Assembly (NCBI RefSeq): GCF_022846255.1
Contig: NZ_AP025682.1
From: Escherichia coli
GTDB taxonomy: Bacteria > Pseudomonadota > Gammaproteobacteria > Enterobacterales > Enterobacteriaceae
Length of the DNA stretch: 64,000 nucleotides
Strand: one strand, 5' to 3'
Positions 2,883 through 30,654 of the stretch are shown one piece after another. The first letter of the stretch is position 1. Each line of letters starts with the position of its first letter. The notes under the pieces were generated by a model, which did no database searches, was not told the origin of the DNA, and saw only the letters and a program-made list of their open reading frames with translations. A program made the position numbers and the translations under genes.

Positions 2883-2966
2883 TCAGGAAAGATAAAAACG
2901 GGTGGCAATCAGTGCGCATAAAATAAGGATGATAAGAATGAACTCAAAGCGATAACGGCCCACCAT
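2883..2966 (-). CDS. ydgU: small hydrophobic protein YdgU (27 aa)
   Basis: Hand translation of minus strand: MVGRYRFEFILIILILCALIATRFYLS, preceded by GGAGGG Shine-Dalgarno; below the ORF-track length cutoff; position between ydgD and asr matches K-12. Confidence 0.6.
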   Translation of the reverse strand: MVGRYRFEFILIILILCALIATRFYLS

Positions 2967-3058
2967 ACTACCCTCCGCTAAAGGCGGTGCTAAACGTTAC
3001 CCGCTTAGCACCGTAATTTTCAGGCGCGAGGGGGCGCGCCAGCATTACTGTTGAAAAC

Positions 3059-3367
3059 TTACGCTGCGGGTTGTGCAGCAGGTTTTGCCGGTTGCTGATG
3101 GCTGTGTTTCTTGGCGTGTTTCTTCGCTGCCTGCGCTTTTTGTTCAGGAGCTTTCTGTTCAGCTTTCGCATTTTTATGATGCTTTTTAGCCGCCTGCGCT
3201 TTCTGGGCAGGTGCTGCTTTATGCTGTTTTTTATGATGTGTAGTTTTCGCCGGCGCTGCTTTGGTGGTCGTCGCAGTCGGAGCAGGTGTGGTCACAGTTT
3301 CTGCAGCAAAGGCGGCAGAAGACAGACCCATAGCAGCGGCAACAACCAGAGCTAATACTTTTTTCAT
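3059..3367 (-). CDS. asr: acid shock protein Asr
   Basis: 102 aa from [17 protein letters not shown] signal peptide; Lys/Ala/His-rich low-complexity periplasmic protein; track ORF starts 9 codons upstream. Confidence 0.9.
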
Positions 3368-3470
3368 TGTCATACCCTCAATTTGTTTTTTCATTTAACC
3401 CCACTGCGGGGCCGTTGAAATAACTATATCCCTGGGAATGGCAGACTTCCGTGAGTGGTTGGTTTCAGCG

Positions 3471-3484
3471 TGTAACGATATGTA
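3471..3484 (-). promoter_or_regulatory. RstA-box-like site upstream of asr
   Basis: Minus-strand sequence TACATATCGTTACA matches the RstA box consensus TACATNTNGTTACA as I remember it; about 105 nt upstream of the asr start codon. Confidence 0.45.
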
Positions 3485-3751
3485 CAAACGCTGAATAAAT
3501 TACAGCGTTGATAATAACGTATTGTGACTTAAGGGAAATTTAGCTACCAATAATAGTAGTCTTGATCGGGTTAACTATTTTACTACTTACAAAGCGGTAG
3601 AATAACTGCGCATCAGTAATAAATGACACATAGCAAAATGAATCCGTTTATTTGGGTACTTATAATCCTGATGACACTAGATGCGCTGCGGGAATTGGCT
3701 GGCGCTTCGTCTATTTTAGGATGGCTATTAACGTTGGTTTGAGCAGGCAAT

Positions 3752-3792
3752 AAGTCCGGACGGGTATTTACCGCAGTCCGGACTTATTTTTT
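3752..3792. terminator. stem-loop at the 3' end of ynfM; strong T-run on + strand, weaker U-tract on - strand
   Basis: 10-bp perfect stem AAGTCCGGAC/GTCCGGACTT with 14-nt loop, followed on + strand by ATTTTTT. Confidence 0.6.
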
Positions 3793-5045
3793 CAGGCGTG
3801 CAGACGATGATGCAAACGCGTCCCGACCAGCAGAGCAATGACCAGCATCAGAGCAATAAATGCGCCGACGCCGTTCCAGCCATAGTTATGCCAGAAAACA
3901 CCACCCAGCGTCCCGGCAATACTCGACCCCAGATAGTAACTGAACAGATACAGCGAGGAGGCCTGGCCTTTAGCGCGTTTTGCTCGGGGGCCGATCCAGC
4001 TGCTGGCTACTGAGTGGGCTGCGAAGAATCCGGCTGAGAAGAGTAACATTCCGGCAAAGATCAGCCACAGCGAGCTGAATAAGGTCATCAATAAACCAAA
4101 CAGCATAACCCCCGTCGAAAACAACATCACCGGACCGCGCCCATAGCGGGTGGTCATGGTTCCGGCTTTTGGTGAGCTCCATGTACCGGTCAAATAAGCC
4201 AGCGATAATAAGCCAACCACGGCCTGGCTGACATGCCAGGGGGAGAGCATCAACCGATAGCCGACGTAATTAAACAGCGTGACGAACGACCCCATCAGCA
4301 AAAAGCCTTCTGCGAACAATAACGGTAATCCCCGGTCACGCCAGTGCAGACGAAAGTTGATGAATAACGTCTTAGGGCGCAGTGAAGTCGGGCGAAAATG
4401 GCGTGATTCAGGGAGGATTTTCCAGAACATTAACGCCGAGGCCAGCGCGAAACAACCGATTGCCGCCAGCGCAATTCGCCAGTTGAAAAAGTCCGTGAAG
4501 ACACCGCTAATTAAGCGTCCGCTCATGCCGCCAATTGAGTTGCCGCTGATATACAACCCCATCGAAAAGGCCACGAAACTGGGGTGGATTTCCTCGCTAA
4601 GATAAGTCATGCCAACAGCTGCTACGCCACTTAACGAAAGCCCAATCAAGGCGCGCATAATCAAAATGCCGTGCCAGCTGGTCATCATTGTCGAAAGTAA
4701 CGTACAAATGGAGGCCAACAGTAGCGCCGTGACCATCACTGGTTTGCGACCAATGGCATCGGATAACGGGCCAGTAAACAGCAAACCGATAGCCAACATC
4801 GCCGTAGAAATGGACAGTGAAATACTACTGTTCGCGGGCGTTAAGCCAAACTCCTGCGAAAGCACCGGAAGGATAGGTTGCACACAATAGAGAAGTGCGA
4901 AGGTTGCCAGTCCGGCAGAGAACAGCGCCAGGGTGACGCGCATAAATTGCGGCGTACCGCGTTTAATAAATTGATTTGGCTGAGAAATGCTTTGCTTGTC
5001 AGTGTCGCTTGCCGGAGCGCCATCAACAGTTGTAGTACGGCTCAC
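3792..5045 (-). CDS. ynfM: MFS transporter YnfM
   Basis: 417 aa ORF, multi-TM MFS-like. Confidence 0.9.
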   Translation of the reverse strand: MSRTTTVDGAPASDTDKQSISQPNQFIKRGTPQFMRVTLALFSAGLATFALLYCVQPILPVLSQEFGLTPANSSISLSISTAMLAIGLLFTGPLSDAIGRKPVMVTALLLASICTLLSTMMTSWHGILIMRALIGLSLSGVAAVGMTYLSEEIHPSFVAFSMGLYISGNSIGGMSGRLISGVFTDFFNWRIALAAIGCFALASALMFWKILPESRHFRPTSLRPKTLFINFRLHWRDRGLPLLFAEGFLLMGSFVTLFNYVGYRLMLSPWHVSQAVVGLLSLAYLTGTWSSPKAGTMTTRYGRGPVMLFSTGVMLFGLLMTLFSSLWLIFAGMLLFSAGFFAAHSVASSWIGPRAKRAKGQASSLYLFSYYLGSSIAGTLGGVFWHNYGWNGVGAFIALMLVIALLVGTRLHHRLHA

Positions 5046-17181: not shown

Positions 17182-17288
17182 CATAAGCTCCTTACGCGAA
17201 GATAACTTCTTTAAGCATAGCATTTAACGTGTAAAGTACTGTATTTGCTACTATGATTGAGAATCATCTCTACTCTCAGGTGACTGTT

Positions 17289-30350: not shown

Positions 30351-30374
30351 ACATTCATTGAGAAAACTGATGCT

Positions 30375-30483
30375 ACTGTGTCAACGATCCGTTATCAGTG
30401 CAGGAAAATGCCTGTTAGCGTAAAAGCAAAACACAAATCTATCCATGCAAGCATTCACCGCCGGTTTACTGGCGGTTTTTTTT
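30375..30483 (+). ncRNA. mgrR: candidate MgrR small RNA (5' end approximate)
   Basis: Roughly 100-nt + strand interval between a PhoP-box-like repeat and a strong intrinsic terminator; K-12 encodes the PhoP-dependent sRNA MgrR between dgcZ and mgtS (memory); 5' end not determined. Confidence 0.45.
30458..30483 (+). terminator. intrinsic terminator, 3' end of candidate MgrR
   Basis: 7-bp GC-rich stem CCGCCGG/CTGGCGG with 4-nt loop followed by T8. Confidence 0.7.
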
Positions 30484-30490
30484 CGCCGTC

Positions 30491-30531
30491 ATAAAAATCA
30501 GGCCCCTTGTACACAACTGTAACAAGGGGCC
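30491..30531 (-). terminator. intrinsic terminator after mgtS
   Basis: 10-bp perfect stem GGCCCCTTGT/ACAAGGGGCC; on minus strand followed by TGATTTTTAT. Confidence 0.6.
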
Positions 30532-30558
30532 GGTTAGGTGAGGGATTATCTCCGTTCA

Positions 30559-30654
30559 TTAGTCATCCCATTTGTGGCTGAAATACGCGGCCAGAAACCC
30601 AGAAAATAAAATTATTCCCAGTACGGCCATAAAAACATTCATATTACCCAGCAT
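30559..30654 (-). CDS. mgtS: small membrane protein MgtS (YneM), 31 aa
   Basis: Hand translation of minus strand: MLGNMNVFMAVLGIILFSGFLAAYFSHKWDD with GGAGG 6 nt upstream of ATG; recognised as MgtS; below ORF-track cutoff. Confidence 0.8.
   Translation of the reverse strand: MLGNMNVFMAVLGIILFSGFLAAYFSHKWDD

Follow-up and report, generated by a model that had tools for sequence, protein, structure and literature searches.

The asr promoter of the Escherichia coli DNA analysed here, a stretch of 64 kb that we call the window, carries an RstA box on the minus strand, and we put the probability that RstA activates asr from this box, at -68..-55 from the inferred transcription start, at about 94%. 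The box is real and deeply conserved, and it is not new: it is the archetypal RstA site, already known from footprinting and mutagenesis and, in its Klebsiella version, from crystals, and it serves in synthetic pH-responsive circuits. It was reportedly described in E. coli K-12 by Ogasawara et al. in 2007, as cited in later papers. We regard it as a useful positive control, a reading of the sequence alone having found a real regulator site at the right place, and the comparison between genera adds a few small refinements, namely a core of TACA-N4-GTTACA, a rigid spacing of 42 bp, a Pho half-site specific to Escherichia and a conserved block at -54..-31.

Sequence and position of the box

The box core TACATATCGTTACA agrees with the consensus TACATNTNGTTACA at 12/12 specified positions when read from 3484 to 3471, which bears out the claim of the initial annotation that the minus strand matches the consensus at every specified position. 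That consensus is identical to the one quoted in PMC4117788 and PMC6824119, which comes from genomic SELEX and has tandem TACA sites. The asr box is built in the same manner, as a tandem direct TACA repeat with a 6-bp gap and 10-bp periodicity. Counted upstream from the A of the asr ATG, the box has its 3' end at 104 nt and its 5' end at 117 nt, close to the 105 nt or so that had first been estimated. On either strand of the 64 kb window, a pattern search for TACATNTNGTTACA found no other site, whether exact or with 1 mismatch. The consensus was presumably derived partly from the asr site itself, so the perfect match is expected and partly circular, and does not count as independent evidence. 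The independent support for the box is its conservation together with the published binding data, not the consensus match alone.

Over the 235 nt that precede the asr ATG, the window has the same sequence as E. coli K-12 MG1655 (asr start at 1,671,376), so the promoter coordinates published for K-12 can be used unchanged. The K-12 promoter has the same 14-mer at the same position (-68..-55 within -77..-55) and the same gene pair, asr-ydgU/samT; the window differs from K-12 by a few substitutions and 1 indel further upstream, in the ynfM-proximal part, and by a few Asr residues. In K-12 the RstA box has been assigned to -77..-55, and a PhoB box that overlaps the -35 position to -39..-22, with a 9-bp spacer from the PhoB box to the -10 and a wild-type sequence that has A at -17 and -13 and bases other than A at -16..-14 (PMC9026648). 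Only one assignment of +1, to position 3416, fits all of these positions and base statements, and we adopted it; the transcription start inferred in this way is second-hand, as are the footprint coordinates, both being taken from the numbering of that paper. The comparison with the published asr promoter that the initial annotation had proposed thus finds the 14-mer within the RstA region as published, so that neither of the two refutations it had named, an RstA site published at another place or a wrong consensus, applies. The features of the locus are as follows.

3471..3493, minus strand: published RstA region CAGCGTTTGTACATATCGTTACA, -77..-55, K-12 coordinates 1,671,250-1,671,272 (PMC9026648, via 100% identity with K-12 MG1655)
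3471..3484, minus strand: RstA box core TACATATCGTTACA, -68..-55 from the inferred transcription start, centre -61.5
3484..3481 and 3474..3471, minus strand: the RstA box's two TACA half-sites, 10 bp apart
3447..3470, minus strand: nearly invariant block CGCTGAAACCAACCACTCACGGAA, -54..-31 (per-column conservation, 55 sequences)
3438..3455, minus strand: published PhoB (Pho) box CTCACGGAAGTCTGCCAT, -39..-22, which replaces the -35 element (PMC9026648)
3423..3428, minus strand: -10 hexamer TATAGT, -12..-7, 9 bp downstream of the PhoB box, invariant in 55/55 sequences
3416, minus strand: inferred asr transcription start (+1), from the numbering of PMC9026648, giving a 49-nt 5' UTR
3397..3413, minus strand: 5'-terminal stem-loop of the asr mRNA, GGCCCCGCAGUGGGGUU, +4..+20 (minimum free energy structure, -9 kcal/mol)
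3059..3367, minus strand: asr coding sequence, 102 aa, periplasmic acid-shock protein (NCBIfam NF033636 equivalog, 100.3 bits)
2883..2966, minus strand: samT (formerly ydgU), 27-aa membrane peptide with translation MVGRYRFEFILIILILCALIATRFYLS (K-12 annotation)

A scan of 2950..3850 found no sigma-70 consensus promoter, and the bases at -35..-30 of the asr promoter are CGGAAG, which offers no usable -35; the promoter therefore needs an activator. The box is located where such an activator could act, on the coding strand in the promoter of an RstA-dependent gene and at an activation-compatible distance (-68..-55).

The distances given here depend on the start codon of asr, which is the ATG at 3367..3365. 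The RefSeq annotation of asr is 309 nt long in the matching E. coli genomes and in K-12, and the NCBIfam Asr equivalog match begins at residue 1 of the 102-aa product. An in-frame ATG further upstream, at 3394, would give a 111-aa ORF, and we rejected it as the start because a 1-nt indel puts it out of frame in most genera and because a conserved Shine-Dalgarno sequence, GAGGGT at 3379..3374, serves the ATG at 3367.

Conservation of the box among Enterobacteriaceae

Of 5426 complete E. coli genomes, 5416 gave a match to the 47-bp segment from -77 to -31, with zero mismatches over the aligned part in 5405 of the 5426, and the whole 461-bp intergenic region was at least 99% identical in 505/5425 records only. 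For the comparison between genera we scanned one genome per species for YnfM, which gave 80 loci, 55 of them with asr downstream of ynfM; in many genera other genes are inserted between the two. The alignment holds 55 distinct upstream sequences, 54 from the YnfM loci and the window's own, and covers about 25 named genera and several unnamed Enterobacteriaceae. Among the genera sampled are Escherichia, Citrobacter, Salmonella, Enterobacter, Klebsiella, Raoultella, Kosakonia, Leclercia, Lelliottia, Buttiauxella, Cedecea, Trabulsiella, Phytobacter and Pluralibacter.

All 55 orthologous promoters have TACA-N4-GTTACA, 116-120 nt upstream of the asr ATG, and both G-TACA and GTTACA are invariant (55/55). 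The 17 variants of the box that occur among the orthologues differ at positions 5-8 only, the four spacer bases; position 5 keeps the consensus T in 38/55, and C is the commonest base at position 7. The alignment thus shows no conservation of the published T5 and T7 and points to TACA-N4-GTTACA as the functional core. The box and the -10 hexamer TATAGT are 42 bp apart in 55/55 sequences, with no indels, and the distance from the -10 to the ATG is 54-58 bp. Upstream of the box the sequences cannot be aligned between genera: homology starts abruptly at TTGTACA, at about -71, and in several genera the box directly adjoins the terminator hairpin of an unrelated gene upstream. Across the 55 orthologues, purifying selection has acted on the half-sites and not on the spacer, as for a site read by two recognition helices. 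At the level of sequence, the invariant half-sites together with the fixed spacing are the signature expected of two recognition helices whose helical phase with respect to RNA polymerase is fixed.

Four loci from Klebsiella spallanzanii, K. indica and Raoultella spp. have the canonical TACA/TACA, about 118 nt upstream of asr. In K. pneumoniae, a species absent from the 80 YnfM loci, asr is described as having an imperfect TACA/TACT repeat and no classic box (PMC4117788). We also came across an enterobacterial ynfM-asr locus, with a YnfM 83% identical and a canonical asr promoter, in CACSKA010000003.1, a record labelled 'Chryseobacterium sp. 18061' (Bacteroidota); this public record is probably mislabelled or contaminated.

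Evidence for RstA and weighing of alternatives

The published evidence on the asr site comes from an identical sequence. The canonical TACA repeat has been reported in E. coli asr, and the structure of a Klebsiella RstA-DNA complex showed two DNA-binding domains bound head-to-tail on the tandem repeat (PMC4117788). In EHEC the asr motif is listed in a genome-wide table of RstA boxes, and RstA bound the asr promoter by EMSA (PMC6824119). In AIEC LF82 the EMSA binding of RstA to this promoter was lost when the box was deleted or scrambled (PMC11135836), and in K-12 RstA clearly binds the asr promoter by DRaCALA (PMC13425233). The initial annotation had described asr as an acid-induced gene dependent on RstA/PhoB, and its RstA part agrees with published work: Pasr is expressed at pH 5 in an RstB-RstA-dependent manner and acid induction requires rstA, a phosphomimic RstA (D52E) raises Pasr >2000-fold at pH 7, and deletion of rstA or a phospho-null RstA abolishes the induction (PMC13425233).

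Three other readings of the box may be considered. Were it a chance short motif in an AT-rich intergenic region, it would have no function. Such motifs do arise easily when a mismatch is tolerated, as at least one match to TACATNTNGTTACA turned up in 23/100 dinucleotide-preserving shuffles with 1 mismatch allowed, and TACA-N6-TACA also occurs inside coding regions of the window. The exact match, however, appeared in 0/100 such shuffles, and the half-sites and their spacing are invariant across about 25 named genera in which the upstream flank cannot be aligned. With RstA binding published as well (PMC6824119, PMC11135836, PMC13425233), the probability of a chance motif is negligible, and we consider a chance origin excluded by the conservation. 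Alternatively, the main user of the tandem TACA in vivo could be not RstA but a paralogue of the OmpR family, for instance OmpR or PhoP. Members of this family recognise similar direct repeats with 10-bp spacing, and RstA and OmpR regulate csgD through the same DNA motif (PMC13425233). Some cross-talk at the asr site is conceivable for this reason, but a paralogue as its main user is highly improbable, as purified RstA binds Pasr in a box-dependent manner (PMC11135836) and Pasr responds to the phosphomimic and phospho-null forms of RstA and to the deletion of rstA as described above.

A somewhat better case, though still a very unlikely one, can be made for PhoB rather than RstA being the operative activator, acting through the Pho box at -39..-22 and leaving the TACA repeat dispensable. 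The gene is said to have been first described as phoBR-dependent by Suziedeliene et al. in 1999, as cited in later papers, and a Pho-box-like sequence does stand in for the -35. This sequence agrees with the Pho consensus at 12/18 positions, 3/7 in the distal half and 6/7 in the proximal half (CTGCCAT vs CTGTCAT). The match is weak, but its position, with a spacer of 9 bp to TATAGT, fits that of a Pho box, for which two CTGTCAT repeats 11 bp apart would stand 10 bp upstream of the -10. The initial annotation had suggested scanning for both RstA and PhoB; the RstA part of that proposal gave the single match at asr, whereas the PhoB part gave nothing, the Pho consensus having no match at up to 3 mismatches in the whole 64 kb window. 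Set against RstA half-sites that are invariant everywhere, the proximal PhoB half-site, CTG(C/T)CA(T/C) at 3438..3444 on the minus strand, is conserved in Escherichia only: it scores a mean of 6.2/7 in six Escherichia sequences and is perfect in E. albertii (CTGTCAT, 7/7), compared with a mean of 2.7/7 (maximum 5) in 49 non-Escherichia sequences, and it is absent in Citrobacter, Salmonella, Enterobacter, Klebsiella and others. Moreover, Pasr at pH 5 is RstBA-dependent (PMC13425233), and mutagenesis of the RstA box suggests that acid induction needs the TACA half-sites (PMC9026648). RstBA has been tied to mild acid and PhoRB to low phosphate at asr (PMC9026648), so RstA and PhoB are complementary and not alternatives, and we see PhoB as a further input, restricted to one lineage, when phosphate is low. 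From the distribution of the half-site, asr seems to have come under PhoB control recently, its promoter having ancestrally depended on RstA; the PhoB input looks specific to the Escherichia lineage, and the RstA input looks ancestral to the Enterobacteriaceae.

Model for activation by RstA

We favor a model in which RstA, the response regulator of the RstB-RstA two-component system, would be phosphorylated at acid pH and dimerise, the rstA gene itself being under PhoQ-PhoP control. The two winged-helix domains of the dimer would lie head-to-tail on the TACA half-sites at -68..-65 and -58..-55, and RstA centred at -61.5 would activate a promoter that has a good -10 (TATAGT) and no -35. In Escherichia, PhoB could add its input at the Pho box at -39..-22, which takes the place of the -35. 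The resulting transcript would encode both Asr and the 27-aa SamT (YdgU), and both products would feed back on RstB-RstA. For the contact with RNA polymerase we infer a class I type of activation from -61.5 because of the geometry and the lack of a -35.

Co-transcription of asr and ydgU, now samT, from the asr promoter has been reported, with the SamT peptide inhibiting RstB and Asr exerting a positive feedback (PMC13425233, 2026). As the asr promoter drives samT, whose peptide product has been known as an RstB inhibitor since 2026, the asr box acts in cis to close a feedback loop on RstB-RstA. The 93-nt spacer between asr and samT contains a GC-rich hairpin, GGCGCGCCCCCTCGCGCC at 3023..3040 on the minus strand, which could terminate part of the transcription or be a site of processing, and in this way set how many transcripts carry asr only and how many asr-samT.

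Other conserved elements around the box

Directly downstream of the box, the block at -54..-31 reads cGCcGAwACCAAtcACTCACgGAA across genera and is almost as invariant as the TACA half-sites. Its 3' part alone overlaps the published Pho box, at the distal PhoB half-site. We tentatively raise the idea, which we hold to be possible rather than probable, that this block is a separate cis-element, and that in Escherichia alone a PhoB box was recently laid over a promoter that ancestrally answered to RstA only. The block could serve for docking of the RNA polymerase alpha-CTD or sigma region 4, hold a low-affinity second RstA dimer, or bind an unknown co-activator. A second dimer in the 10-bp register would sit at -48..-35; the half-sites there match poorly (wACC 3/4, TCAC 2/4), and for this reason the idea remains speculation.

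The stem-loop GGCCCCGCAGUGGGGUU at the 5' end of the asr mRNA is essentially invariant in sequence in the 55 orthologues, and there is no covariation since nothing varies. Its folding energy is no better than that of shuffled sequences (z = -0.19), and a scan of the asr region against Rfam gave no match at E<=1, which places the hairpin outside the described RNA families. It could act as a 5'-end stabiliser of a very abundant acid-shock RNA.

Three copies of CAGCGT/ACGCTG lie around the box at 3464..3509 on the minus strand. They form AACGCTG-N9-CAGCGTT as well as TTCAGCGT-N16-ACGCTGAA, the latter bracketing the RstA box exactly. We considered whether this inverted repeat and the additional AACGCTG could be the site of another factor or a cruciform, and rejected the arrangement as a general feature because it is absent outside E. 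coli and its closest relatives.

Related sites and neighbouring features in the window

The csgD RstA box of EHEC (TACACTTAGTTACA, Table S4 of PMC6824119) has the same TACA-N6-TACA with a GTTACA downstream half and is bound directly by RstA. The csgD box differs in being shared with OmpR and in its promoter context and output, whereas the promoter of asr is a simple, activator-dependent one with the RstA box as its furthest upstream element. Pho boxes such as those of pstS and phoA, which belong to class II sites of the OmpR/PhoB family, are likewise tandem repeats bound by a head-to-tail dimer of a phosphorylated winged-helix protein at promoters without a -35, and consist of 11-bp repeats (CTGTCAT and 4 AT-rich bases) that overlap the -35 position. 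The asr RstA box, in contrast, has TACA elements spaced by 10 bp and has its centre one and a half helical turns further upstream, at -61.5.

The TACA-N6-TACA pattern occurs 6 times in the 64 kb window against 1.17 expected, a count reached in 0/100 shuffles. The sites are at 3471, 17230, 30508, 33007, 52675 and 60035; three lie inside long ORFs and one in a palindromic terminator hairpin, and a cluster of RstA sites is probably not what the excess represents. A second intergenic occurrence, TACAGTACTTTACA at 17230..17243 on the minus strand, falls in a divergent intergenic region before a 248-aa ORF (17253..). It corresponds to 'motif 8, z2572' of the EHEC RstA-box table, at the same 13.76-kb distance from the asr box (PMC6824119), and is a candidate site. 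Another match is held by the terminator hairpin GGCCCCTTGTTACAGTTGTGTACAAGGGGCC of STnc560, an Hfq-binding sRNA for which the window has a full-length Rfam match (RF01407) at 30352..30565 on the plus strand, with 281.9 bits against a gathering score of 55.

Between ynfM and asr we noted a small hydrophobic ORF of 39 aa at 3623..3742 on the plus strand, divergent from asr and convergent with ynfM, whose true start is likely the ATG at 3638 (MNPF...). It matches NCBIfam NF033695 ('KPN_01571 family / trnsprt_adja_30') with 63 bits and is annotated by PGAP in other E. coli but missing from the K-12 MG1655 record. A homologous ORF lies directly downstream of ynfM, on the opposite strand, in 27 of the loci compared, so that this small gene travels with ynfM and not with asr.
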